DNA of 64,000 nt from Escherichia phage vB_EcoM_EP32a. The position numbers were made by a program, and so were the translations under genes. The stretch lies in the sequence record OR544954, one strand, 5' to 3'. The notes under the pieces are model-generated. The model saw nothing but the letters and a program-made list of their open reading frames with translations, ran no database searches and was not told the DNA's origin. Position 1 is the first letter of the stretch. Every line of letters starts with the position of its first letter. Of the stretch, positions 5,909 to 61,956 are shown one piece after another.

Positions 5909-6594
<686 letters not shown>

Positions 6595-7851: not shown

Positions 7852-8367
7852 ATGAATATTCGTTTAGGCAGTACAATTCCTAAGGGCTACGTAATTGATG
7901 TCACTACCTAGGAAAATGATGGTGACAACTATAAAACCAAAACATTGTTTGAAGTGGAAGAGCATGAGCTCCAACAGTTTAAATATCTCTTGAAGAAATT
8001 TAAGAGTCGTCATTCTAGCACTAAAGCCGAACGTTATTGTGGTAATACACCATTCAGTGATTGCTCGCTTTTAATCTATGAATACTTGGTTGAAGGGCTG
8101 TTCTCAGACCAGCTTTATCCAGAATTTATTAAAAAGGTCTTTGATATTGAAGTCGACCTCGGTAATAAATCTGAAGAAGACGAAGCGCGTGTATTTGACC
8201 TGTTCCATGAGAATGGATATTTAGTATCAGAAGGTCTCATTGATATTCTTGGCCATGCTTCTGAATACTATGATTACGATTTCTTGCGTGTAGTTGAACG
8301 TGTCGAATTTGCTTATATTGAAGAAGAAATCGTTTTGCCAACCGTTAAAATGGTTGATTTGCTTTAA
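7852..8367 (+). CDS. hypothetical protein, reading frame interrupted by in-frame TAG at 7909-7911
   Basis: ATG 7852 with GGTGA SD opens MNIRLGSTIPKGYVIDVTT, then TAG, then the same frame continues ENDGDNYKTKTLFEVEEHELQQ... to 8367. Confidence 0.4.
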
Positions 8368-9659: not shown

Positions 9660-9824
9660 ATGACTACTTTAATTATTTGGTTCGATGAAAATGAAGAAAC
9701 ATACTGTGTGAATATTGGTGAAAGTCCAATGCCTGAATTTGAATCCTCAGATAAAAACTCTGTTGTATCTTGGGCTGAAGGTTATAAAGCCGCTAAAGGT
9801 GACGTTGAAATAATTTACATCTAA
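9660..9824 (+). CDS. small hypothetical protein (54 aa)
   Basis: ATG after AAGGAG, downstream of a promoter-like TACTATAGAC element; below the ORF-track size cutoff. Confidence 0.4.
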   Translation: MTTLIIWFDENEETYCVNIGESPMPEFESSDKNSVVSWAEGYKAAKGDVEIIYI

Positions 9825-9870
9825 GTAAGTTTATGTTATAGTAATCACATCAAATAAAGAGGAAAACAAA

Positions 9871-10098
9871 ATGGCTAAAGTTAGTATTGATGTCGTTGAT
9901 TATGAATACACCGAAGAAGTTATTCGCAACCGACACCCTGAAGTTCGTATCGATTCAGTCCAAGATTCCAAGTTCTGGACAACTGAGCTTAATCTGAGTG
10001 GTCCTTATGAAGCTGTTAAGAAGTTCATGGTTGAAGAATACTGCGAAGGCATGCACCCTGAAGATGCAGAATTTTATGTCAACTTGATTAAAAAATAA
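9871..10098 (+). CDS. hypothetical protein
   Basis: 75-aa ORF after promoter cassette 9811-9845 and AGAGGAAAA SD. Confidence 0.5.
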   Translation: MAKVSIDVVDYEYTEEVIRNRHPEVRIDSVQDSKFWTTELNLSGPYEAVKKFMVEEYCEGMHPEDAEFYVNLIKK

Positions 10099-10168
10099 TT
10101 TACAAACTCTCGAGAGCAGAGTATAATGCTCTCGTTGGATAATAAACCACCAATTGAAAGGTAATAAT

Positions 10169-10762
10169 ATGAACACACTGAAGAAACTTGTTGAATTCAT
10201 CCGCACTAAACTGGGTACTGCTATGGCTAAAAATCTGACTGTCGAAGAACAGTATAACGCAGCTGCAGATAAGTTGATTACCCAAATCAAAGAACTAAAA
10301 ACGGCTTCTGTTAAATCTATTAATGAAGAAAAACGTATTCGCGAACTTGTTAATGAAAAGAATAAGCAAGCCGCTTCTAAGGAACGTGAAATTCGTAAGC
10401 TCCTGGCTGAAGGACAAGATGTTACTATGCATGCTAAGCTTGGTCTTCTGTATCGTCGAACTGCCGAACAACTTAATACAAAAGCTGACGGGTATGCCGC
10501 TATGCGAATTGAAATTGCTCGTAAGGTGGTTGAACTTGATGATGCTCGTCAGAATCTGGCAATCAAACTCGAATACATTCGTGAAACTCGAGCAGCCAAT
10601 GCCCTTGGTATCTCTACGGCTGATGATGTAATTGAAATCGCTGCACTGACTAAGGTTGATATCGAAGACACTCTGACTCGTGTTGAAACGTTCAATGGCA
10701 CTCCAGCCGGTGTCGAAACCACTTCTGCTGATGTACAAGAATATATTAACTCTTTGAAATAA
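10169..10762 (+). CDS. coiled-coil protein (possible PspA/IM30-like architecture)
   Basis: 197 aa, heptad-rich helical sequence; resemblance to PspA is by pattern only. Confidence 0.5.
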
Positions 10763-10770
10763 AATAATAC

Positions 10771-10794
10771 GGAGGACTCCGGTCCTCCTTTTGG
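10771..10794 (+). terminator. rho-independent terminator
   Basis: GGAGGACTccGGTCCTCC hairpin followed by TTTT. Confidence 0.6.
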
Positions 10795-10811
10795 ATAATA
10801 AAGGAGTTAAC

Positions 10812-11414
10812 ATGCGAAACCAAAATAATGATATTGACTCAATGTTCGAAGAGTTCCGAAATAAGGTAAATCCACCTACGTCTTTAGTTGATTCATTACG
10901 ATATGTTGCAACTGGACGTAAATGGTACTGGTCGTCTTCTTATGAGACTACTGAGAAAACGGCCAGCCATAGCAGAAAATCTTTATTAGCCCCAGGTATT
11001 ATGATTCATGATATCGGAGCTATTGCTAAACTAGTTGCAGACCATGATATTAGATTCACTGATTTCGTTGCTCCTACGTGGTCTGTTTGTTGTTTAAACA
11101 CTGAATGGGAATATATCAGCGAACGCTCTAAAGATTATTATGGTTTTAGAGACAAGCTTTTAAGGTCTAACATGTTTTATATTGATACAGAAGTTCTGGT
11201 CAATAATAAAAAATACTACTTCACTTTAATCATCGATTCTGAAACTATGTATGAAGGCAAGCCTTTGCTTAAGAGAGTTGATGCTTTAAGTGCTATTGAT
11301 GCGCTTTATGAAACTATGGTTGTTAGTCCTAATTTCACTAACAATTTAATCCTTGAGCAATTTATTATGGAATGTAGAGAATATGTCAAAGCCAACCCTA
11401 TACATGCCAAGTAA
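10812..11414 (+). CDS. hypothetical protein, C-terminal EQFIMECRE motif
   Basis: 200-aa ORF; ATG after AAGGAG. Confidence 0.55.
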   Translation: MRNQNNDIDSMFEEFRNKVNPPTSLVDSLRYVATGRKWYWSSSYETTEKTASHSRKSLLAPGIMIHDIGAIAKLVADHDIRFTDFVAPTWSVCCLNTEWEYISERSKDYYGFRDKLLRSNMFYIDTEVLVNNKKYYFTLIIDSETMYEGKPLLKRVDALSAIDALYETMVVSPNFTNNLILEQFIMECREYVKANPIHAK

Positions 11415-11778
11415 GCCCTGGGCGTATGAATACAAGCGTAAATTAATCCCAAATGAAGTACTATTTGGCCCTATTTTAGCTTTAGCATTTTTAATCTTTA
11501 TGATTATAGGAGCTGTTTTAGATTCTAGTGAAGTTATATCGTCTGATGCAGCATTTTCATTAATGTTCGTCGCACCACTTATTGTACCGTTTTTATTAAT
11601 GCCTATTAATTGGGTAGGATATTGGCACCAAGGCCGTCATCACAGAGCCCGATTAAGAGAATGGAAAGTTCAGTGCGCAAAAGCCCAAGCTCAGTATGAT
11701 GAAGCTGTTAAAAAGTATGAATATGAAGAAGCTATGGAATTCGTTAAGGAAATAAGATGCAAAAGCCTCAACTCTTAA
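11383..11778 (+). CDS. small membrane protein
   Basis: Hydrophobic segments ILALAFLIFMIIGAVL and MFVAPLIVPFLLMPI; start overlaps upstream ECRE motif. Confidence 0.5.
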   Translation: MSKPTLYMPSKPWAYEYKRKLIPNEVLFGPILALAFLIFMIIGAVLDSSEVISSDAAFSLMFVAPLIVPFLLMPINWVGYWHQGRHHRARLREWKVQCAKAQAQYDEAVKKYEYEEAMEFVKEIRCKSLNS

Positions 11779-12116
11779 CCGTATGGCCTTCTCTTGGTGA
11801 GAACATTCTAATTTTTATTATGAGTATTGGCATGGGATTTGCCTTTGGATTAGTTGGATTTCTTATTGACGGCGTTGTGTTAGGATTTATAGGGAACACT
11901 GGTGGATTCACAGACCAATGGCAGGACTTACGGTACACCCAAGCCTTTGCATCCATCGCATCATTTTGTACTGTAGTCTATTTTTACTACGATTTTATAA
12001 ACCACAACAAGAAAAATAAAAAGGTTTACGCTTCTCAAATGATTAGTTATAATGAACTCCTAGCTAGACGTGAAAATGAAACAATCGAAAACTTTATTAA
12101 GGAATGTAGAAAATGA
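11757..12116 (+). CDS. small membrane protein, C-terminal ENFIKECRK motif
   Basis: TM segments; conserved C-terminal motif. Confidence 0.5.
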   Translation: MQKPQLLTVWPSLGENILIFIMSIGMGFAFGLVGFLIDGVVLGFIGNTGGFTDQWQDLRYTQAFASIASFCTVVYFYYDFINHNKKNKKVYASQMISYNELLARRENETIENFIKECRK

Positions 12117-12418
12117 GTAAGATTATTGAAATTAAAGTACCAGAGTTTAATGATGCCAAATCCGCTTCAGATGCAATTTATAAACTTCTGAATCAAGCTG
12201 AACGTATCGAAGAAGAAGCAACAAAGATCGCAGACCAATATGCCGTATCATTTTCTGTAGGTGATTATGGTAGCGGTCGTACTTATTATCCTAAGGGTGA
12301 AATCGTATCCCAGTGGATGAAAGATGAAATTGAAAATAATGGCGGCGATGTTAAGCGTGAAGGTAATGGATACGTTATTACTGAAGGTGCTTGGGTTTCG
12401 TCTTCTGCGTTGTGCTAA
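12113..12418 (+). CDS. small protein, C-terminal GAWVSSSALC (paralog 1 of 3)
   Basis: ATGA-coupled ORF; shares C-terminal GWVxSSxxC with the next two ORFs. Confidence 0.5.
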   Translation: MSKIIEIKVPEFNDAKSASDAIYKLLNQAERIEEEATKIADQYAVSFSVGDYGSGRTYYPKGEIVSQWMKDEIENNGGDVKREGNGYVITEGAWVSSSALC

Positions 12419-12427
12419 GGAATCATT

Positions 12428-12700
12428 ATGTCTAAAGAACAAACCGAACTGGCTGAAGCTGTAGCAAAAATCTATGCAGCTATTGAGGCTGCCAAAGAAA
12501 TTGCTGATAAACAAAACACAACATTCAACTTGTACCCAGCTTATGGTATGGGTGGAACCTATCATTCACCCGGACATCTTAAAGCCGATCTTGAACGTTG
12601 TACAAAAAACGGCTATGCTGAATGGGCTGACGTTTACCAATACGACTACAACCTGAGCCTCGAAACTGGTGGTTGGGTCGCATCTTCTCACACTTGCTAA
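12428..12700 (+). CDS. small protein, C-terminal GGWVASSHTC (paralog 2 of 3)
   Basis: ORF after AAGGAA SD. Confidence 0.5.
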   Translation: MSKEQTELAEAVAKIYAAIEAAKEIADKQNTTFNLYPAYGMGGTYHSPGHLKADLERCTKNGYAEWADVYQYDYNLSLETGGWVASSHTC

Positions 12701-12709
12701 GGAAACAAT

Positions 12710-12907
12710 ATGTCTCGTGAATTAGATTGTGCTGTACGTACGGCAGTAGCTGCTCTGGAAAACCTGTTCCAAATTGCAACAGAAGAACGCGAAGAAGTTA
12801 CATTATGGATTGAAGATAACGCAGGTCTGAATCTCCAGGACGCGATCTCATTATCCCACAATAGTATCACTGTTCAAGGCTGGGTATCATCTAGTTATTC
12901 TTGCTAA
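12710..12907 (+). CDS. small protein, C-terminal QGWVSSSYSC (paralog 3 of 3)
   Basis: ORF after AAGGAAA SD. Confidence 0.5.
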   Translation: MSRELDCAVRTAVAALENLFQIATEEREEVTLWIEDNAGLNLQDAISLSHNSITVQGWVSSSYSC

Positions 12908-12913
12908 AACAGT

Positions 12914-12948
12914 TTACAACAAGATAGGGCTATGTTATAGTAGTCCTA
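12914..12948 (+). promoter_or_regulatory. early promoter cassette (GTTTAC ... TGTTATAGT) with palindrome
   Basis: agtttacaacaagatagggctatgttatagtagtcctatcaaaacaaatggag. Confidence 0.5.
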
Positions 12949-12969
12949 TCAAAACAAATGGAGTCCACA

Positions 12970-13209
12970 ATGATTTATTACGAAAGTATCGGAACCAAAG
13001 TGGTTGGCAAAACCATTACTCGTGAAAAGTTTGCAAAGATATTCGATATGCGTTATAAAAAATCTGAACACAAAGGCATCCGATTCGAAGATGCGCACTG
13101 TACAATTTGCCCTTATAATGAAGACATAAACGGTACAATCGTTCCATTGGTAGAAGCTTCACATGATGACCTCTGGGATGAATATAATATCGCATGTCGT
13201 GAAATTTAA
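12970..13209 (+). CDS. hypothetical protein
   Basis: ATG after the conserved leader caaatGGAG. Confidence 0.45.
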   Translation: MIYYESIGTKVVGKTITREKFAKIFDMRYKKSEHKGIRFEDAHCTICPYNEDINGTIVPLVEASHDDLWDEYNIACREI

Positions 13210-13237
13210 GTTAATGAATTAATCCGAGGAAAATATT

Positions 13238-14194
13238 ATGATGTTAGTTATTGGTTCTCGTGCACTTCACTATCACGGTCTTATTGATTCTAGCGCTATC
13301 AAAAATAGTGATTGGGACTTTATTGCGGACCAAGGTTCTTGGAATGCATTCAAAAATCAAATGATGGGTGTATATGTCCACCAAGATAACCCTGATGTCC
13401 AAGTTTTCAAATGCTTCCATAATGGTCGCGAAACTCATTTTGAAGCATATATTGTTCCGGCAATCACTAATGTCCGTGAATTAGTCGGTGAACTCACTCC
13501 TGAAGATTTCACATCTTCTTATGACCTTTTAAAATACGCCAAGAAAAATTTGACTAAAGACCGTTTGAACGGGTTTTACTGGGCAACTCCTGAGATATGT
13601 CTTGCAATTAAGATGTCTCATCGTTTCAAGAAAAATAATCCATTCTTTTTAAAGACTATGAACCATATTCAGTATCTTCGTGGTAAAGGTGTTACACTGA
13701 ACGATGAACTTACTGAAATTATGCTGAAACGCCAAAAAGAAACTTTGAACTATGCTCACCCTGTTCTTGACACTTCTAAAAGTGCGTTCTTTAAAGATGA
13801 CATCTATACATATGACCATGATACTATTCACGAAGCCATTGCACTAACAGACCGTCCGGCTTATATGTTTTACATGAAAGATGGTTCTGAAGTCATGACC
13901 TCACGCGAGAAGTTCGAATCATTACCGGAAATGGTCAAATTGGCCGGTGTATATGAAGAATCATGTGTACTAGCATTAGAACGTTCTCAGATTCCTAACG
14001 ACTTTAAAATCCATCCACGTGATAGTTTTATGATGGCCCTTGAAAAGGTCTGTACATCAATCACATCAGGATGGTTCCGTGAGTTCGCTTGGGAAAATTA
14101 TAGCAAAGTAGTAAGTATGTACCAAAGCTTAGGACACGACGATTACGTCAAGCGTTTCAAACAAAACTTTCATATGGTAAAACCTTTCAAATAA
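13238..14194 (+). CDS. hypothetical protein, possible nucleotidyltransferase fold
   Basis: 318-aa ORF; N-terminal IGSRAL...SDWDFIAD loosely fits the G-S...D-x-D NTase motif with atypical spacing. Confidence 0.5.
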   Translation: MMLVIGSRALHYHGLIDSSAIKNSDWDFIADQGSWNAFKNQMMGVYVHQDNPDVQVFKCFHNGRETHFEAYIVPAITNVRELVGELTPEDFTSSYDLLKYAKKNLTKDRLNGFYWATPEICLAIKMSHRFKKNNPFFLKTMNHIQYLRGKGVTLNDELTEIMLKRQKETLNYAHPVLDTSKSAFFKDDIYTYDHDTIHEAIALTDRPAYMFYMKDGSEVMTSREKFESLPEMVKLAGVYEESCVLALERSQIPNDFKIHPRDSFMMALEKVCTSITSGWFREFAWENYSKVVSMYQSLGHDDYVKRFKQNFHMVKPFK

Positions 14195-20978: not shown

Positions 20979-21322
20979 CCAAAATGTTGGCTTTAATAGT
21001 TAGCTTGGTTTCATTTAACGCTCTTGCTAATACTACATATACTGATGTAACGGAGTATACAAACAGAACGGCGTCTGATTATTGTGGTAAAAGTCAAGAG
21101 TGTAAAGTAGATTTTTCACAAAAATTGTTATACGCGTATAAAGACGGAGAAAAAGATGGGGCGTCTAGTAGGTTCAAGGCGTCTACCTTAATTAAAAGAT
21201 ACTATAAAAAATGGCAAATATTAGAATGCTCGGTGGCGGAACCTAAAGATAAGGCAGCATGCAATTCTATGGTGGACCGTCTAGTTGACTCTTATAATAG
21301 AGGACTTGCAGCAAGTGATTAA
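20975..21322 (+). CDS. small secreted protein
   Basis: Signal peptide MTKMLALIVSLVSFNALA; four Cys in mature part. Confidence 0.5.
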   Translation: MTKMLALIVSLVSFNALANTTYTDVTEYTNRTASDYCGKSQECKVDFSQKLLYAYKDGEKDGASSRFKASTLIKRYYKKWQILECSVAEPKDKAACNSMVDRLVDSYNRGLAASD

Positions 21323-21782
21323 AAACTACATCAAGGGCGATATTGTCGCCCTGTTTTCTAAAGGTAATAATATTGCTCATGGGTGTAATTGTTTTCATAC
21401 AATGGGCGCCGGTGTAGCAGGCCAATTAGCAAAGGCTTATCCAAAAATTTTAGAAGCCGATAAACTTCAAACCGAATTCGGAGACGAGTCTAAACTCGGG
21501 TCTTATTCGGTTTATGAAAAATATTTTAAGACCCATAAAGCTTATTGCTTTAATCTTTATACGCAGTTTGAGCCTGGACCTAATTTTGAGTACTCTGCTT
21601 TAATGAATTGTATAATAGAATTAAATGAATTCGGAAAGAATAAGATAACAAAGCCTGTAATTTATATGCCAAGAATTGGTGCAGGTATCGGTGGTGGAAA
21701 CTGGGATGTCATCGAAGAGATTTTAGATACGTATTCCACTAAACTAGAAATTGTGATTGTTGATTGGGAACCATTATTATGA
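21315..21782 (+). CDS. macro domain protein (ADP-ribose binding / processing)
   Basis: GDIVALFSKGNNIAHGCNC...GAGVAGQL and PRIGAGIGGGNWDVI fit macrodomain signatures; start inferred at GTG 21315 after GAGGA (the ORF has no ATG before the domain). Confidence 0.6.
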   Translation: MIKNYIKGDIVALFSKGNNIAHGCNCFHTMGAGVAGQLAKAYPKILEADKLQTEFGDESKLGSYSVYEKYFKTHKAYCFNLYTQFEPGPNFEYSALMNCIIELNEFGKNKITKPVIYMPRIGAGIGGGNWDVIEEILDTYSTKLEIVIVDWEPLL

Positions 21783-50679: not shown

Positions 50680-51315
50680 ATGAAAACTACTCCTATTACT
50701 ATCGCTATTGACGCAATCATAAAACAAGCTTCTTCTTTGGCCGCTATGGCCAAAGTAATTAGTCAAAACCCTGCTCGTTATAATGCTATTCTAGAAACTC
50801 TTCGACGCCCTGGACTTAGTAATTATGAAAGCCGGGTAATTATTACAGGTGTTGGTAAGAATGCTAATATCGCAACTAAAGCTTCCGAGACTTTTGCTTC
50901 ACTAGGTATTCCTAGCATGTATTTGAACACCGGGCATTATTCTCATGGTGATGCAGGATTTATTGCGCCTAATGATGTGTTGATTCATATTAGTCGTTCT
51001 GGTAAAACTGAAGAAATGATAGGTGTTGCTAAACATCTTCGTATGATTCGTCCTCAGGTTAAACAGATTCTGTTACATTGTAACCCAGACATTCCACAAG
51101 AATACGAAGCTCTTTTTGATTATACGTTCTGTACCGGTATCGCGGTAGAAGTTGACGAGAACTCTTTGGCTCCGACTATGTCCACTACATTGTTGTTAGC
51201 GCTTATCGATACGTTTGCTATCAACCTTTCGTCTGAACGCGGATTTACCTCTAATGACTTCCTTAAGTTCCACCCTGGTGGTGCACTAGGTGCCATGTTA
51301 CGAGGCGAACAATGA
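50680..51315 (+). CDS. SIS-domain sugar phosphate isomerase, KdsD/GutQ-type arabinose-5-phosphate isomerase-like
   Basis: VIITGVGKNANIATKASETFASLGIP, HGDAGF, ISRSGKTEE, LAPTMSTT, RGFTSNDFLKFHPGGALG align with the KdsD SIS domain by eye; 211 aa, single SIS domain. Confidence 0.8.
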   Translation: MKTTPITIAIDAIIKQASSLAAMAKVISQNPARYNAILETLRRPGLSNYESRVIITGVGKNANIATKASETFASLGIPSMYLNTGHYSHGDAGFIAPNDVLIHISRSGKTEEMIGVAKHLRMIRPQVKQILLHCNPDIPQEYEALFDYTFCTGIAVEVDENSLAPTMSTTLLLALIDTFAINLSSERGFTSNDFLKFHPGGALGAMLRGEQ

Positions 51316-51443
51316 AAGCAATAACAATAGGACTTTTACTATTGATGCTTGTCATGACTATCTACTGGAGCTTAATGGCTCCAGTAATGATTCCAACACT
51401 TGTAATTGGATGGATTATGATTGGACTACAAGCAAAGTATGAA

Positions 51444-51468
51444 TGCTTTATCTAGAATAGTGTACAAT
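51444..51468 (+). promoter_or_regulatory. middle promoter (MotA box aaTGCTTTA, -10 TACAAT)
   Basis: MotA box 51444-51450, TACAAT at 51463-51468, 29 nt before the ATG at 51497. Confidence 0.45.
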
Positions 51469-51496
51469 ACTCCTACTTACCAATGAGGACTTCAAC

Positions 51497-53182
51497 ATGA
51501 AAAAAGCTGTTATTCTTGGTGCTGGACTGGCAACTCGTTTGTATCCAATAACGCATCATATTCCTAAGGTGCTTGTTAACTATAAACAAGACACTATTCT
51601 GAGCAATTTGTATACAATTTATTCTGACCTTGGCGCAGATGAAATTATTGTAGTAGTTCATTCAAAATTTGCTGAAACCGTTCGAGCTTATTGTGAGCAA
51701 GAAGGGTTCAATGTGACTATTCGTACAGTTGATGAAGCGTATGGTTCTGCTTATGCTCTTGCTAAATTATACAAAGATTTAGATGGCCATAACGTAATTG
51801 TTAACTGGTGTGATATTATTCCTGATTTTGGTTCATGGTCTTGGAATGTTAACGCAATCTATGTTAAGGGTGATGAATGTCGATATAATTTCGACGGTGA
51901 AAATATCACTAACGTAGGTTCAACGGGTGGTAATGTTGTAGGAATTTACCAGTTCAAAGACTGGGAATTCTATATGGGTTCTACTGATGAGGAAATTCAT
52001 GAATACTGCAAAGGACGTGATTTCGTAGAATTCCTTTACGGGAGTGCATTCAATAAATCAGAGCTTATGAATCTAATTGATTTAGGTGATATGCCTAAAC
52101 TTGAAAAAGCTCATGAAGTTCGTGAACTTAATCGTAGTTTTAATGCAGTTGAAATTGGTGAAGAAACTGTAACTAAATTCGCATTAACCGAACAGGGTCG
52201 AGCTCTTCAGAAAGATGAGATTTCATGGTATCTTAAAGTGAAATCAGATTCAGTTCCTCAGTTAGTTTCTGTTAATGAAAATAACTTTGAAATGGAACGC
52301 ATTAAAGGTAAGCCGGCATTTGAATATATTAAATCCAAATCAAGTCTTGCTCGTCCACAAATTGTTGATGCAATTTTAGATGCACTGAAATTCAGCACAG
52401 ACACTTATTTTGTAAGTCCTGAAACTGTTCGTCGTGATTTCACTAAAGAATTCTATACGAAAGTTATTGATCGTTGTGAAAGCATTCAGCCATTGATTGA
52501 TTCATTTGGTAAAATCACACATGTGAACTACACTAAGATTGGACGTCTGAAGCCAATGCTGAAACAAGCTTTAGAACACCTTATTCGTTATCATAACCGT
52601 TCTCAGGGACAGTACTCTGTTATTCACGGTGACCCGAACTTCAGTAATACTATGATTACTGATAATGGCGAAGTCAAGTTTATCGACCCTCGTGGATATT
52701 TTGGTGAAACCAAGATTTACGGGCCAAAATTGTATGACGAAGCTAAAGTGCTTTATGCTGTTTCAGGTTATGATGAATTCAATGCTAATCCAACCTGGGG
52801 ACAGTTTACTATTGATGAAACAACTTGTAATGTGACTATTAACATCAATCCATTAGTTTACAAATATGGAAAGATGAGTTCGTTTAACGAGTATCATCAT
52901 TTGGCAGTGGCAATTATCTGGATTGCATTAGGTGGTTATTTCAAGAATAATCCACTTAAAGCGGTAGCCGCATATTATAAAGGTATGGAACTTCTGACTA
53001 AGCAATTACGTAACATGGGCCGTGTACTTCAGGACGGCTCTATTAGTTATGACGTAGCAGAACCTGTAACGGCTACTCTGATTACAAAAAATCCTGGTAA
53101 ATGGGTACTAACTGATAAAGAAACTGGTGTTTCCTATCGTCCAATCGGTGGCGATATCACTCATCAATGGGAACGAATCTAA
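51497..53182 (+). CDS. bifunctional sugar-1-phosphate nucleotidyltransferase (N-terminal) / APH-ChoK-fold kinase (C-terminal)
   Basis: N-terminus AVILGAGLATRLYPITHHIPKVLV (G-x-G-x-x-R, LicC/MurU-like); C-terminus VIHGDPNFSNTMITDNGEVKFIDPRG (HGDxxxxN catalytic loop plus D of the APH/choline-kinase fold); 561 aa. Confidence 0.75.
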   Translation: MKKAVILGAGLATRLYPITHHIPKVLVNYKQDTILSNLYTIYSDLGADEIIVVVHSKFAETVRAYCEQEGFNVTIRTVDEAYGSAYALAKLYKDLDGHNVIVNWCDIIPDFGSWSWNVNAIYVKGDECRYNFDGENITNVGSTGGNVVGIYQFKDWEFYMGSTDEEIHEYCKGRDFVEFLYGSAFNKSELMNLIDLGDMPKLEKAHEVRELNRSFNAVEIGEETVTKFALTEQGRALQKDEISWYLKVKSDSVPQLVSVNENNFEMERIKGKPAFEYIKSKSSLARPQIVDAILDALKFSTDTYFVSPETVRRDFTKEFYTKVIDRCESIQPLIDSFGKITHVNYTKIGRLKPMLKQALEHLIRYHNRSQGQYSVIHGDPNFSNTMITDNGEVKFIDPRGYFGETKIYGPKLYDEAKVLYAVSGYDEFNANPTWGQFTIDETTCNVTININPLVYKYGKMSSFNEYHHLAVAIIWIALGGYFKNNPLKAVAAYYKGMELLTKQLRNMGRVLQDGSISYDVAEPVTATLITKNPGKWVLTDKETGVSYRPIGGDITHQWERI

Positions 53183-53568
53183 TGCACCGTGTAGAAAACA
53201 TGCTTAATCTTTGTTTTGATGTCGACGATTGTATAACAGAGTGGAATAACAATCGTGATTACGTGAACTTCAAGCCAGACGTCGAAATGGTGACTGCCAT
53301 TAATGCCCTGTATGATGCAGGGCATACCATAACGCTTTACACTGCTCGTGGTATGAAGTCAGTAGGTCCTGGACGTATAGCAATTGATATTCTCCCAAGT
53401 CTGATTCAGAACTTGGCAAACATTGGCTTGAAGTACCATAATTTGCTAACACATAAACCAGTATATGATTGGATTATCGACGACAAAGCTATGCGTCCTG
53501 ACGAATTCAAAGCTCTTATGAATAAAGGCGAATTCGAAACATTTAAATCGTATAAACCGAATCTATAA
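53182..53568 (+). CDS. HAD-superfamily phosphatase-like protein
   Basis: Motif I-like FDVDDCIT, motif II ITLYTARG, motif III/IV HKPVYDWIIDDKA; start taken at the ATG overlapping the upstream stop. Confidence 0.55.
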   Translation: MHRVENMLNLCFDVDDCITEWNNNRDYVNFKPDVEMVTAINALYDAGHTITLYTARGMKSVGPGRIAIDILPSLIQNLANIGLKYHNLLTHKPVYDWIIDDKAMRPDEFKALMNKGEFETFKSYKPNL

Positions 53569-53628
53569 TAATTTAAGTAAGACCTGCAAAAAAAAACCAT
53601 CGCGTCAATTAACGTGAGATGCAAAAAA

Positions 53629-54789
53629 ATGAATACTTTTAAAATCGGAACGAATTTTGATTTAGCTCTTCTTGATAAAATCGTAGAGCTCAATAAAACT
53701 TATCCTAATAGCTTGATAAACGAAGTATACGGCTCTACAAGAGAAATGGCTTTTGTAGCAGCCAGACCTGATTTTAGGCTTCCTGACGTTGACAAAAAGA
53801 TGTTAGAAGATTACGTTAAACGTTGTAACGAATTAGGTATTTGCTTTAACTATACACTCAACACGATAAATCCTGGTTCAAAAAGAGAACTAGTTGAGTG
53901 GAAGAAGAAAGCTATTCAGGATTATGTTCAGTATCTTTGGTCAATAGGCGTATGGCGTATTACTATCGCTAACCCTGTTGTTATGGAAATTGTTCGTGAA
54001 GTCAATAAAGACATTGAGATTGAAGTTTCAACAATTCTACATGTCGATGCTGTAACTCAAATAAAATACTTACATGACCAATACAATATCAAAAAGGTCT
54101 GCTGTGGAATTCATAAGAACCGTTCAGTTTCTTTCCTGAAGCGTGCAGCAGAGTTTTGCAATAAGAACAATATAATATTTGAAGTTCTTGTAAATGAGTT
54201 CTGTTCTAATGCTGGTAAAGGGTATACAACACATTGTAGCTATCGTGACTCTTGCTATATTTTCCATAGTACTGATGTTACAGCTGATGATGCTAAATCC
54301 TTAAACGGGTATCCTATGCAGCACTGTATTAAAGCTCGTGATACAGACCCATTTAACTGGTTGAGAACTCGTTTTGTTCGTCCTCAAGATTTGAAACTTT
54401 ATAATGATATTGGTATCACTCAATTCAAAGTTTCAGGACGTACAGGTAGCACAGACTACATTTTGAAAGTTCTTGAAGCATACGCTTCTGAAAAGTTTGA
54501 AGGTAATTTGTTAGAACTGTGGAAGCCTTTAGAGACTATTTTCACTCTTGAAAACGAAACTGAGTTTTCACATACAGTAAATATTGAAACCTCTTTGTTA
54601 GATGGCTTTTTAGAAAAAAGGTGGTTCAGACATCCAGATTTCGATTGTGCTAATGAAATCTGCGGGACGACGTGTACATATTGTGAAAGATATTATAAAC
54701 GTCAATTATCTAAAAACGGGTTAGCAGAAAACTCTATATCTATTATTGATATAACTAACTCTGATGACGCTTTGAGGTACCCGGAATGA
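53629..54789 (+). CDS. hypothetical Cys-cluster protein (possibly peptidase-U32-like)
   Basis: 386 aa; NEFCSNAGKGYTTHCSYRDSC resembles the U32 signature E-x-F-x2-G-[SA]-h-C-x4-G-x-C; C-terminal C-x4-C-x3-C-x2-C; assignment tentative. Confidence 0.45.
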   Translation: MNTFKIGTNFDLALLDKIVELNKTYPNSLINEVYGSTREMAFVAARPDFRLPDVDKKMLEDYVKRCNELGICFNYTLNTINPGSKRELVEWKKKAIQDYVQYLWSIGVWRITIANPVVMEIVREVNKDIEIEVSTILHVDAVTQIKYLHDQYNIKKVCCGIHKNRSVSFLKRAAEFCNKNNIIFEVLVNEFCSNAGKGYTTHCSYRDSCYIFHSTDVTADDAKSLNGYPMQHCIKARDTDPFNWLRTRFVRPQDLKLYNDIGITQFKVSGRTGSTDYILKVLEAYASEKFEGNLLELWKPLETIFTLENETEFSHTVNIETSLLDGFLEKRWFRHPDFDCANEICGTTCTYCERYYKRQLSKNGLAENSISIIDITNSDDALRYPE

Positions 54790-58846: not shown

Positions 58847-60289
58847 GTGGTAGAAATTATTTTGTCTCATCTAGTATACGACCAGGCTTATTTTTCTAAG
58901 GTCTGGCCTTATATGGATTCTGAGTATTTTGAGCGTGGACCGGCAAAAAACGTCTTTAAAATTATAAAGAGCCACGTTAACGAATATAATGCAATGCCGT
59001 CTATCAATGCATTAAAGGTGGCTTTAGATAACAGTTCTTTAACTGAAGCTGAATATAAAGGAACTTCAGACCTAATTGAAAAATTGGCTGATACTCCTGA
59101 AGACCATGAATGGCTGGTTAAAGAAACTGAGAAATATGTCCAGCAAAAAGCGATGTATAATGCTACGTCCAAAATCATTGAGATTCAGTCTAATGCTGAA
59201 CTACCTCCAGAACAACGTAACAAGAAAATGCCTGACGTAGGAGCTATTCCTGATATTATGCGTCAAGCACTTTCAATTTCGTTTGATAGTTATGTTGGAC
59301 ATGACTGGATGGAAGACTACGAAGCACGCTGGCTTTCTTATCTAAATAAAGCACGTAAGGTCCCGTTCAAATTAAACATTCTGAATAAAATCACTAAAGG
59401 TGGTGCTGAAACAGGTACACTGAATGTTTTAATGGCCGGTGTTAACGTTGGTAAATCTTTAGGCCTTTGTTCACTTGCTGCAGATTATCTTCAAACAGGT
59501 CATAATGTTCTTTATATTTCCATGGAAATGGCTGAAGAAGTTTGTGCTAAGCGTATAGATGCAAACATGCTTGACGTATCACTCGATGATATCGATGATG
59601 GTAACGTATCTTATGCCGAATATAAAGCCAAGATGGAAAAATGGCGTTCAAAATCCACATTAGGACGTTTAGTAGTTAAACAGTATCCTACTGGTGGAGC
59701 TAACGCTAATACATTTCGTGCATTGCTTAATGAGTTAAAACTTAAGAAGAACTTTGTGCCATCTGTAATCATGGTTGATTACTTAGGTATTTGTGGGTCT
59801 TGTCGTATCAGAGTTTACACTGAAAATAGCTACACATTAGTTAAAGCTATCGCAGAAGAACTTCGTGCATTAGCAGTAGAATCTGAAACAGTTCTATGGA
59901 CTGCAGCTCAAGTAGGACGTGCAGCATGGGATGCTTCGGATATGAACATGAGTGATATTGCAGAATCAGCAGGTTTACCAGCAACGGCAGATTTCATGTT
60001 GGCTGTAATTGAAACCGAAGAACTTGCACAAGCTGAACAACAACTTATCAAACAAATCAAATCACGATATGGTGATAAGAATAAGTGGAATAAATTCCTG
60101 ATGGGTGTACGTAAAGGCAACCAGAAATGGATTGAGATTGAGCAAGAAGGCATGAACACACCTAACACAGTAAATGAAAACGCAGGTGCTCAGATGCGTC
60201 AGGCAGAGGTGAATCGTACGGAACGCGTAGGTAAAGCCAAAGCAACACGGGCTGACCTAGATAGCTTAGCCAATGAGTTAAAATTTTAA
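58847..60289 (+). CDS. 41: replicative helicase gp41 (DnaB-like)
   Basis: MVEIILSHLVYDQAYFSKVWPYMDSEYFE...; Walker A MAGVNVGKSL; GTG start after AAGGAG; 480 aa. Confidence 0.95.
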   Translation: MVEIILSHLVYDQAYFSKVWPYMDSEYFERGPAKNVFKIIKSHVNEYNAMPSINALKVALDNSSLTEAEYKGTSDLIEKLADTPEDHEWLVKETEKYVQQKAMYNATSKIIEIQSNAELPPEQRNKKMPDVGAIPDIMRQALSISFDSYVGHDWMEDYEARWLSYLNKARKVPFKLNILNKITKGGAETGTLNVLMAGVNVGKSLGLCSLAADYLQTGHNVLYISMEMAEEVCAKRIDANMLDVSLDDIDDGNVSYAEYKAKMEKWRSKSTLGRLVVKQYPTGGANANTFRALLNELKLKKNFVPSVIMVDYLGICGSCRIRVYTENSYTLVKAIAEELRALAVESETVLWTAAQVGRAAWDASDMNMSDIAESAGLPATADFMLAVIETEELAQAEQQLIKQIKSRYGDKNKWNKFLMGVRKGNQKWIEIEQEGMNTPNTVNENAGAQMRQAEVNRTERVGKAKATRADLDSLANELKF

Positions 60290-60294
60290 TAAAA

Positions 60295-60313
60295 AGGAGA
60301 CTTCGGTCTCCTT
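60295..60313 (+). terminator. UUCG hairpin terminator after gene 41
   Basis: GGAGACttcgGTCTCC followed by TTTCGGGG. Confidence 0.5.
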
Positions 60314-60377
60314 TCGGGGTTTACATCTTCCTCTAGGCATGATATGATGTACTTACACCAACCAAGAGGAAAACATT

Positions 60378-60752
60378 ATGAATATGTCTCAAGCAATTTT
60401 TACTGCAATCACCGAAAACACAACTGTTGAAGTAGTTTCTCCACTGGCAACCTACGTTATTCTTGCTCCTAAAACTATTGTATCTCGTATGGAAAACATG
60501 GGCAAACGTATCGTACAAATTGTTGGAGCCGGAAATCAAAAACTTGATTATCTGCGAACCATCAAAGCTTATGAACATTTCCAACTCGAAAAAGGTTCTC
60601 CTATCCAGGTAGAACTTGTAAATGGTGATATCGTTCGAGCAATGTTCCATCATTTCTATGCATTGAATGACCCATCTAAAGCGGTTCGTTTAATTGCATA
60701 CGACGCAAACCAAAACGAAATCAACGCAGATATATCTAAATTACGTTTTTAA
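60378..60752 (+). CDS. hypothetical protein
   Basis: 124-aa ORF after AGAGGAAAACATT. Confidence 0.5.
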   Translation: MNMSQAIFTAITENTTVEVVSPLATYVILAPKTIVSRMENMGKRIVQIVGAGNQKLDYLRTIKAYEHFQLEKGSPIQVELVNGDIVRAMFHHFYALNDPSKAVRLIAYDANQNEINADISKLRF

Positions 60753-60756
60753 GTTT

Positions 60757-60806
60757 ACTTCTCCAGTAGTTGTGTTATTATAGACCTATCAACTACTGGA
60801 GAACAA
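60757..60806 (+). promoter_or_regulatory. early promoter cassette (near-duplicate of 19913-19962)
   Basis: GTTTACttctccagtagttgtgTTATTATagacctatcaactactggag. Confidence 0.5.
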
Positions 60807-60807
60807 A

Positions 60808-61125
60808 ATGAAAACCATCGATTGTAAAGCAGAATTTAAGATTTTTTATCACGGTTCAAGTAGTTCAGCTAACATCGAAAACATGCTTTGTCCTCCTGAG
60901 GAAACAGGAGTTCTGTCTGAAACTGGGCGTAAGAAAAACTTGGATCGTGTATTCTTTACCGAAGATATCGGTTTAGCAAAGATTTATGCAGGACGAGCAG
61001 CACGCTCTTATGGAGGTGAACCACGTCTCTATCGAGTAATTTCTCCGGTAGATGTAGTTCAAATGAATGATACTAAAGGCGCTACAGTTTATCACGCTGA
61101 ATGGGCATTTTGCGAGGAAATATGA
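60808..61125 (+). CDS. hypothetical protein, possible Arr-like ADP-ribosyltransferase fold
   Basis: FYHGSSS, RVFFTEDIGLAKIYAGRA, EPRLYRVISP resemble Arr motifs (FYHGT, IYFS...AVWGA, YIYIVEP) by eye; 105 aa. Confidence 0.5.
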   Translation: MKTIDCKAEFKIFYHGSSSSANIENMLCPPEETGVLSETGRKKNLDRVFFTEDIGLAKIYAGRAARSYGGEPRLYRVISPVDVVQMNDTKGATVYHAEWAFCEEI

Positions 61126-61313
61126 GCAAATTAACTAAAGTTACTTTTATTGGTTGGTTTAAAAGCGGTGAGATGTTCACTAAAGATATCATGTTATCAG
61201 GCGACCGTGAAGAAATCGAGTGGGTTGCGGTACAACTTGCTGAAGTGAACAAAGCATTAGTTAAAGCATTTGTTAATGACGAGAAAGTTTTTGAAGCTGA
61301 TTTCAGAGGATAA
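61122..61313 (+). CDS. small hypothetical protein
   Basis: 63-aa ATGA-coupled ORF. Confidence 0.4.
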   Translation: MSKLTKVTFIGWFKSGEMFTKDIMLSGDREEIEWVAVQLAEVNKALVKAFVNDEKVFEADFRG

Positions 61314-61314
61314 T

Positions 61315-61527
61315 ATGTATTCAACTGTGTTTAAACCATCAACATACGAATTTGCATCAACTACACAATGGAAAGCTCTTATTCTGGAAGGATGGGAACT
61401 AATGATGGACTGTGAAGCATCTGAAAAGTTTCCACACGGCAAAGTGGACTTCGTTAAATTTGCTGTACGTCCGACTAAACGACAGATTCGTCAAGAAAAA
61501 CGCAAATTTCGAAAAAGTTTAAAATAG
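61315..61527 (+). CDS. small basic protein with C-terminal VRPTKRQIRQEKRKFRK
   Basis: Shares the xVRPTKRQ[IL]R motif with ORF 33220-33390. Confidence 0.4.
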   Translation: MYSTVFKPSTYEFASTTQWKALILEGWELMMDCEASEKFPHGKVDFVKFAVRPTKRQIRQEKRKFRKSLK

Positions 61528-61587
61528 CTGTTTACAAGCACCACATACTGTGTTACTATCTTTCTATCAACTACAGAGGAAATTGAA

Positions 61588-61956
61588 ATGAAAAAATTAA
61601 TCGCTTTAGCAATGGTATTTGGATTAACCGGATGTGGTGCCCATGGCTTTATTCCTAATAACGTTGGCCAACTGATTTACAATCCGAATGTTAAACAGTA
61701 CAACCAACCTAAAGTTGAAGTGGAAGACCCGGTTACTGTAGGTAATCGAATGATTCAAGCCGATGCTCATGCTCAACGTTATCGTGATTCCGATACTGTA
61801 GCTATGTCAAAAGAACAGCGCGTTAAAGAACATTGCTTACAGGCTACTGAAATCGCATTCATTCGCTATGTTGAAACAACTGGTAAAGAGCCTACCCAGA
61901 AACAAATCGCGAATAACTATGTCCAGTGTATTGAACGTTTAAACAAATTTAATTAA
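61588..61956 (+). CDS. lipoprotein
   Basis: Signal peptide with lipobox MKKLIALAMVFGLTGC. Confidence 0.6.
   Translation: MKKLIALAMVFGLTGCGAHGFIPNNVGQLIYNPNVKQYNQPKVEVEDPVTVGNRMIQADAHAQRYRDSDTVAMSKEQRVKEHCLQATEIAFIRYVETTGKEPTQKQIANNYVQCIERLNKFN

Follow-up and report, generated by a model that had tools for sequence, protein, structure and literature searches.

A 105-residue Arr-related protein of T4-like phages as a candidate early mono-ADP-ribosyltransferase

The window analysed here is a 64,000-nucleotide (nt) stretch of Escherichia phage vB_EcoM_EP32a (sequence record OR544954), an RB69-like Mosigvirus whose sequence is 98.6% identical to that of RB69 over positions 60300-61600. An open reading frame (ORF) on the plus strand, 60808..61125, begins with ATG and is translated into 105 amino acids (aa), MKTIDCKAEFKIFYHGSSSSANIENMLCPPEETGVLSETGRKKNLDRVFFTEDIGLAKIYAGRAARSYGGEPRLYRVISPVDVVQMNDTKGATVYHAEWAFCEEI. 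The interpretation that we favor, and consider reasonably probable, is that this protein is a minimal (core of ~95 residues), catalytically competent mono-ADP-ribosyltransferase (ART) dependent on nicotinamide adenine dinucleotide (NAD+), that its family is a phage-specific sister of the Arr family, and that it acts early in infection. An earlier note on this DNA had described the protein as Arr-like; the ART fold with Arr-type motifs is borne out by profile and structure evidence, but the protein is very probably not a rifampin ADP-ribosyltransferase.

The resemblance to Arr is significant only at the level of profiles or structures. The single 105-aa protein gave no match in Pfam (up to E=10), NCBIfam or the PDB sequences, and a profile of close homologues only (alignment A1) gave nothing significant against the PDB; the first homologue search had returned close relatives only, all at least 62% identical. 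An exhaustive hidden Markov model search seeded with 44 homologues yielded 220 cluster representatives, and the Arr signal emerged only with a profile (A2) that combined 56 domain sequences from diverse relatives. When this profile was compared with the whole PDB, Arr was the sole significant family (2HW2/9IAF, E=1.8e-4; ARR-2, E=4.8e-3), and 30 of the 56 sequences matched Pfam Arr-ms individually. Alignment of the family with 29 full-length Arr proteins (alignment A4) using hhalign gave a probability of 96.9% (E=2e-10, 76 columns). The AlphaFold2 model of the 105-aa protein had a pLDDT of 84.8, with the minimum at residues 38-40, and the split beta-sheet ART fold that characterizes the H-Y-[EDQ] clade was found in it. 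The structure search returned ART-fold matches, with Arr as the nearest family by Foldseek. The earlier note had proposed such a search against Arr and held that lack of an ART match or of an NAD cleft would speak against its idea; neither outcome occurred. The three strings it had quoted as Arr motifs are all present in the translation of 60808-61125, FYHGSSS at aa 13-19, RVFFTEDIGLAKIYAGRA at aa 47-64 and EPRLYRVISP at aa 71-80. These comparisons indicate that the similarity to Arr is true homology, far beyond chance, and that the N-terminal ~80 residues (beta1, D-loop, beta2, helix and beta3) are homologous to the NAD-binding half of Arr.

The homology does not extend to the remainder of Arr. 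It stops at the Arr 'TGPFE' in every alignment, just before the EDDPN motif, and the aligned region is followed by 21 residues in the phage protein versus ~60 in Arr. In the Arr alignment E74, D76, P77 and N78 (A4 numbering) are invariant, and EDDPN carries the catalytic Asp84. The phage protein reads VVQMNDT in this region, with positions 84-88 not conserved, and has no counterpart of the EDDPN catalytic Asp or of F84, G86, N87, R93, W107 and H110 (A4 numbering). Rifamycin is contacted in Arr by Asn86, the Lys91 lid, and Leu130 and Leu133 of the C-terminal helix (bioRxiv 10.64898/2026.05.04.722716), all without counterpart in the phage protein. As for the curated thresholds, relatives score 26-31 bits versus the Pfam Arr cut-off of 25 (PF12120), and ~26 bits versus the 130-bit cut-off of the NCBIfam rifampin_ARR equivalog (NF033144). 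The alignments indicate that the family shares the NAD-binding half of Arr and not its acceptor half, and therefore that it is very probably not a rifampin ADP-ribosyltransferase.

In the part that does align, the residues expected around NAD+ are strongly conserved. Conservation was counted over 103 family domain sequences, in which H15 and G16 of the HG[ST] motif are invariant (103/103). Gly20 of Arr provides its backbone at the nicotinamide site, which is lined by Gly20, Ala57 and Tyr49 (bioRxiv 10.1101/2025.02.20.639278). The following basic loop contains E38 (102/103) and R41 (100/103), aligned with Arr E40 and R43 of E-x-G-R, as well as conserved P29, P30, K43 and N44; in Arr the loop Val32-His46 is the D-loop equivalent (bioRxiv 10.1101/2025.02.20.639278). 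Position 49, aligned with Arr Y49, is Phe in 101 sequences and Tyr in 2, and T51, aligned with Arr T51, is found in 100 of the 103. A57 (102/103) aligns with Arr Ala57, which stands in for the PARP serine (bioRxiv 10.1101/2025.02.20.639278). No member deviates at Y60 (103/103). The distance from A57 to Y60 presumably corresponds to the S904-x-x-Y907 spacing of PARP1.

The acidic residue is the point at which the family departs from other ARTs. At position 93, the start of strand 5 and the canonical place of the catalytic Glu, an acid is present in 22 of the 103 sequences (Glu in 18), and the window protein has Thr. An acid at position 53 without one at 93 is found in 72 sequences and the reverse in 21, while only one sequence has both and nine have neither, some of these nine looking offset by one residue. 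The exclusion is strong (Fisher p=7e-14), and 93 is the column of highest mutual information with 53, but these statistics ignore kinship and the 21 sequences with an acid at 93 may be one clade. D53 is invariant in the T4-like homologues. This pattern suggests one required acidic group able to sit on either of two neighbouring elements, and D53 is the probable catalytic acid of the T4-like clade, relocated from strand 5. Such an exchange between D53 and E93 argues for catalysis and, together with the conservation of H15-G16, F49/T51 and A57/Y60, for an active enzyme. E103 was considered as a general catalytic residue and rejected: it is invariant in T4-like copies and is hydrophobic in most of the wider family.

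In the proposed mechanism, NAD+ would be held by H15/G16, F49/T51, A57/Y60 and the E38/R41 loop, and D53 would stand in for the acid found at the start of strand 5 in canonical ARTs. ADP-ribose would then be passed to an acceptor other than rifamycin, since the protein lacks the acceptor pocket of Arr and has Lys-Lys where the D-loop of Arr is hydrophobic. The Lys-Lys pair may point to an anionic, conserved acceptor, that is, a patch on a host protein, a nucleic acid or a nucleotide. The enzyme would act in the first minutes of infection, the gene apparently being transcribed together with dmd from an early-type promoter of its own; other phages would deliver this module within injected polyvalent proteins. 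Early promoter and injected modules together suggest a role in host takeover or counter-defence.

Several points weigh against this interpretation, besides the kinship of the sequences used for the covariation. The window protein by itself falls below every curated Arr threshold. Both the canonical strand-5 position and that of Arr D84 lack an acid in it, and F49 replaces the Tyr of the H-Y-x triad, so that the aromatic ring is retained and the hydroxyl is gone. The type of acceptor is deduced from loop chemistry and context only, and the early-type promoter is a candidate recognised by consensus match only. A literature search returned no description of this ART family and no biochemical data for any member; in the survey of viral NAD and ADP-ribose enzymes, the only phages mentioned as having Arr-family ARTs are those of Microbacterium, Gordonia and Sinorhizobium (PMC9503650).

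The relatives in other phages give further indications of the role. The domain lies within proteins of 200-3924 aa, and 31 of the 55 multidomain relatives match Arr-ms, while its partners in them include ART-PolyVal (8), NUDIX (3) and DUF7178 (3). Other partner domains are LPD23, ddrB-ParB, portal, tape measure, CHAP, 2H/Acb1-like phosphoesterase, GNAT and Toprim. The family thus recurs in large multidomain proteins beside LPD and effector domains, as is characteristic of effector modules of polyvalent proteins, the injected conflict effectors described by Iyer et al. 2017 (PMC5512222); the copy in the window stands alone.

Timing is suggested by the region upstream of the gene (Table 1). The candidate promoter contains GTTTAC, the T4 early -35 motif (PMC1524935), and a GGAG Shine-Dalgarno sequence (60798-60801) lies 7 nt 5' of the ATG. 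A stable hairpin has its 5' arm within the promoter spacer, and this GGAG is contained in its 3' arm. With the arms straddling promoter spacer and ribosome-binding site, RNA reading through from gene 41 would mask the site and RNA begun at the internal promoter (~60788) would not, and the ART may be translated only from the latter transcripts. The arrangement resembles known translational gating in T4. In Klebsiella phage KLB31 the upstream region, read from the sequence by eye, has a terminator-like hairpin (GGAGGCTTCGGCCTCC then TTT) followed by GTTTAC...TATTAT; the element pairing with the Shine-Dalgarno sequence, also read by eye, is present in KLB31 and absent in 44RR2.8t.

Table 1. Features of the window discussed in the text
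Feature	Position	Strand	Basis or remark
Arr-like minimal ADP-ribosyltransferase coding sequence, 105 aa, RB69ORF040c orthologue, PHROG 2110	60808..61125	+	ORF translation, homology
H15-G16-S17, beta-1 HG[ST] NAD-binding motif	60850..60858	+	Aligns with Arr H19-G20-T21
Residues 28-47, conserved basic loop PP..T...SE.GRKKNLD, equivalent of the Arr/PARP D-loop	60889..60948	+	Alignment
F49-F50-T51-E52-D53, beta-2 aromatic and probable catalytic acid D53	60952..60966	+	Alignment, covariation
A57-K58-I59-Y60, helix at nicotinamide site	60976..60987	+	Alignment
T93, start of strand 5, canonical catalytic-Glu position of ARTs	61084..61086	+	Secondary structure, covariation
T4-early-type promoter-like site, GTTTAC-spacer-TG-TATTAT	60753..60781	+	Consensus scan: TTTACT-16-TATTAT with TG
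14-bp hairpin	60759..60803	+	RNA fold -24.7 kcal/mol, z = -5.2, 0/200 shuffles as stable
gp41 helicase	58847-60289		ART is the second gene after the helicase
RB69ORF041c-type ORF, 124 aa, phrog_10668	60378-60752	+	No family or function detected
dmd, antitoxin against RnlA/LsoA	61122..61313	+	Pfam Dmd 75 bits
Macro-domain ORF	21285-21782	+	Pfam Macro 27.4 bits versus cut-off 22

The ORF is a real, constrained gene, with pairwise ratios of nonsynonymous to synonymous substitution rates (dN/dS) against five homologues of ~0.1-0.25, although dS was saturated. It matched phrog_2110 (E=3e-60), a group with no assigned function, and its identification with RB69ORF040c comes from the 44RR2.8t homologue, which carries the annotation 'similar to RB69ORF040c'. 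A tblastn search found the gene in 609 phage records, mostly at 60-100% identity, from phages of Escherichia, Klebsiella, Acinetobacter, Aeromonas, Enterobacter, Cronobacter, Vibrio and other hosts. Identity is 64-72% across T4-like phages of Escherichia, Klebsiella, Acinetobacter and Aeromonas, and the Vibrio phage copies are more distant. T4 itself is inferred to lack the gene, judging only from the 'ORF' naming convention of RB69. The annotated start is inconsistent among genomes, several other records having shorter or longer starts; in the Bas47 annotation (MZ501047, 3435-3677) the protein begins at the internal Met26, is 80 aa long and has lost the conserved HG motif.

The position of the gene varies. 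In KLB31 it stands next to the helicase, in 44RR2.8t it lies between hoc/inh and gene 24, and in Aeromonas phage 65.2 it follows tk. In Acinetobacter phage Acj61 a gene for nicotinamide phosphoribosyltransferase, an enzyme of NAD salvage, precedes it by ~1 kb on the same strand, with a primase nearby, and a functional link of NAD supply to NAD use is possible there. Synteny with helicase gene 41 was rejected as a functional clue, since the neighbours differ in 44RR2.8t, Acj61 and 65.2. As its position differs among phages, the ART behaves like a mobile accessory gene, one whose sequence is conserved to an unusual degree.

Outside phage records, the locus search with the close-homologue alignment gave five loci, three in bacterial assemblies and two in Patescibacteria. 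The three assembly copies, 64-71% identical, are on a 178 kb contig of Flagellimonas marina (NZ_JBHSCL010000010), a 167 kb contig and a 3.2 kb contig, and are probably T4-like phage DNA rather than chromosomal genes. The two genomes of Patescibacteria (candidate phyla radiation) have stand-alone versions of 143-148 aa with a 45-residue N-terminal extension (7902-8348; 7923-8354). Their neighbours include an insertion sequence (IS) transposase, Clp protease, PD-(D/E)XK nuclease and glycosidases: one copy adjoins the IS transposase, and the other is in an island with a methyltransferase-like ORF, the PD-(D/E)XK nuclease and the Clp protease. No macro, ARH or NADAR gene stands beside these two chromosomal copies, and there is therefore no sign of a toxin-immunity arrangement. 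No antitoxin or immunity gene for the ART (macro, ARH, NADAR or specific inhibitor; DarT/ParT/Tre-type) adjoins the window copy either, its neighbours being an ORF of unknown function and dmd. The distant stand-alone homologues are mostly on contigs of <5 kb, with little context.

Among the alternatives we considered chemistry of the Tpt1/KptA kind, in which ADP-ribose would go onto a phosphate (an RNA or DNA end, a 2'-phosphate or a nucleotide) and not onto a protein side chain. This is unlikely, as the N-terminal RNA lobe, which holds most of the catalytic Arg-His-Arg residues of Tpt1, is absent, only 75 of 179 Tpt1 residues align, and the family profile matches no Tpt1 in the PDB. The D53/E93 covariation also suggests that an acid is required, and the domain fusions are weak evidence for this chemistry, since polyvalent proteins join unrelated effectors. 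A more speculative possibility, to which we give slightly less credence, is a phage-specific 'half-Arr' whose antibiotic pocket was exchanged for the basic loop and which, in the opening minutes of infection, acts on an acceptor that is not a protein, either by placing a cap or mark on a phosphate of a nucleic acid or nucleotide, in the manner of Tpt1 but with no RNA lobe, or by inactivating a diffusible anti-phage metabolite. If true, phage counter-defence would include a reaction of a new class, carried by an immediate-early gene co-translated with Dmd or by a polyvalent module.

It is also doubtful that the protein is no transferase at all, but an NAD+ glycohydrolase or a non-catalytic sponge for NAD-derived immune signals, for example the gcADPR of Thoeris. 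The lack of the canonical catalytic Glu and of the Arr Asp fits such a function, and known sponges are likewise small proteins, as this apparently early-expressed one is. However, the acid swap between D53 and E93 implies selection for catalysis, and a stoichiometric binder is implausible as one domain of a 2000-3900-aa protein injected in few copies. As for a glycohydrolase, depletion of NAD+ would be expected to hurt the phage, and the gene order in Acj61 suggests productive use of NAD.

A true Arr-type modifier of small molecules, which would detoxify rifamycin-like RNA-polymerase inhibitors or another diffusible anti-phage compound and so shield the host RNA polymerase, seems very unlikely. 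Arr is the nearest family by sequence and by Foldseek, and T4-type phages depend on host RNA polymerase throughout infection. The idea has been raised for bona fide Arr genes of actinophages (Iyer et al. 2022, PMC9503650). Against it, EDDPN, the other invariant Arr residues and the rifamycin contacts are without counterpart in a protein with 21 residues after the aligned region, the relatives reach 26 bits against the 130-bit cut-off, and the D-loop has Lys-Lys in place of hydrophobic residues. A single-copy injected polyvalent protein would also be an odd vehicle for antibiotic detoxification. The Tpt1-like, small-molecule and binder or NADase explanations are each less well supported than mono-ADP-ribosylation.

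The earlier note had further paired the ART, as writer, with a macro-domain protein of the same genome (21285-21782) as eraser; both genes are indeed present and the macro ORF exceeds the Pfam Macro threshold, but a dedicated pair is highly improbable and the claim found no support, as 39 kb separate the genes, the macro family is spread over 2842 phage records versus 609 for the ART and extends to phage groups outside the ART-carrying T4-like phages (rV5-like, Pseudomonas, Delftia and Streptomyces phages), none of the 55 multidomain relatives is an ART-macro fusion, and a DarG-like match fits countering of host DarT. Among NCBIfam models the macro ORF matches best, at a score far short of the cut-off, the macro domain of the DarG antitoxin (a DNA ADP-ribosyl glycohydrolase), and a separate role in counter-defence would explain this match just as well. 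The ORF could be an orphan DarG-like counter-defence enzyme, by analogy with the NADAR protein AdfN of T-even phages (PMC11825919).

Regarding the genes around the ART, the earlier note had placed it downstream of the helicase, and it does lie 3' of gp41, but one unrelated ORF stands between them; this ORF has its own early-type promoter match at 60320-60348. The ART stop and the dmd start overlap as ATGA at 61122-61125, read directly from the sequence, which suggests co-transcription and translational coupling. A longer ORF from 61101 probably does not give the true dmd start, since its first seven residues lie outside the PHROG Dmd match, which starts at residue 8, i.e. at ATG 61122. Elsewhere in the window, ~50680-54789 (corresponding to 9773-13880 of the Bas47 record) holds putative UDP-arabinose biosynthesis genes according to the Bas47 annotation, consistent with the arabinosyl-hydroxymethylcytosine DNA of RB69-type phages. 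A clear homologue of anti-CBASS Acb1 (2H phosphoesterase) is encoded at 6139-6594 on the plus strand (Pfam Acb1, 196.8 bits).

The distinction from Arr has a practical side. BFVD labels relatives of the protein 'rifampin ADP-ribosyltransferase', and automated pipelines may flag therapeutic phages with such relatives as carriers of a resistance gene; the flag would probably be false, because the rifamycin-binding half is absent.

Compared with known systems, the closest is Arr (PF12120; PDB 2HW2/9IAF/9IBA), with which the phage protein has the fold and a homologous N-terminal half in common, both being very small stand-alone ARTs. The two align at HG[ST], the E-x-G-R D-loop, the aromatic at Y49, T51, A57 and the G-rich turn preceding the 'Y.V.P.G' strand. 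The phage protein is shorter, 105 aa versus ~135-143 aa, and has F49 where Arr has Tyr49, and Y60 at a position that is Gly in M. smegmatis Arr and Trp in other Arr sequences. Its D-loop is GRKK as opposed to the hydrophobic GRIM/GRIL of Arr and, unlike Arr, it has the probable acid D53, is phage-borne and recurs as a module of polyvalent proteins. The NAD-binding lobe of Tpt1/KptA (PDB 9LD3, 7KW9) is comparable, but the phage protein lacks the RNA-binding N-lobe and thus the two-lobe architecture, and sequence similarity of the family profile to Tpt1 was not detectable in the PDB profile search. AcrIF11, an anti-CRISPR ART of phages and plasmids (PDB 6KYF), has no profile-level sequence match with the family, and its target, type I-F Cas8f, is unrelated to the host range of the present family. 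ART-PolyVal is a distinct ART family, which co-occurs with the present one in one polypeptide, so that the two are presumably non-redundant; the present family recurs as a module of those giant injected proteins (PMC5512222), but the window copy differs from ART-PolyVal modules in being a free-standing, apparently early gene and not part of a virion protein.

Alt, ModA and ModB of T4 are likewise phage ARTs for host takeover and offer a functional analogy in timing and purpose. ModA and ModB are made early after infection, and all three belong to the R-S-E clade. They are much larger than the present protein, unrelated to it in sequence, and have known targets (RNA polymerase alpha and others). 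Alt is injected along with the phage DNA (PMC5512222). If the acceptor were identified, early infection biology would gain a new NAD-dependent step, and counter-defence perhaps a new mechanism. The protein described here represents a truncated form of an enzyme kind already known, in an uncharacterised lineage distinct from that of T4 Alt, ModA and ModB.
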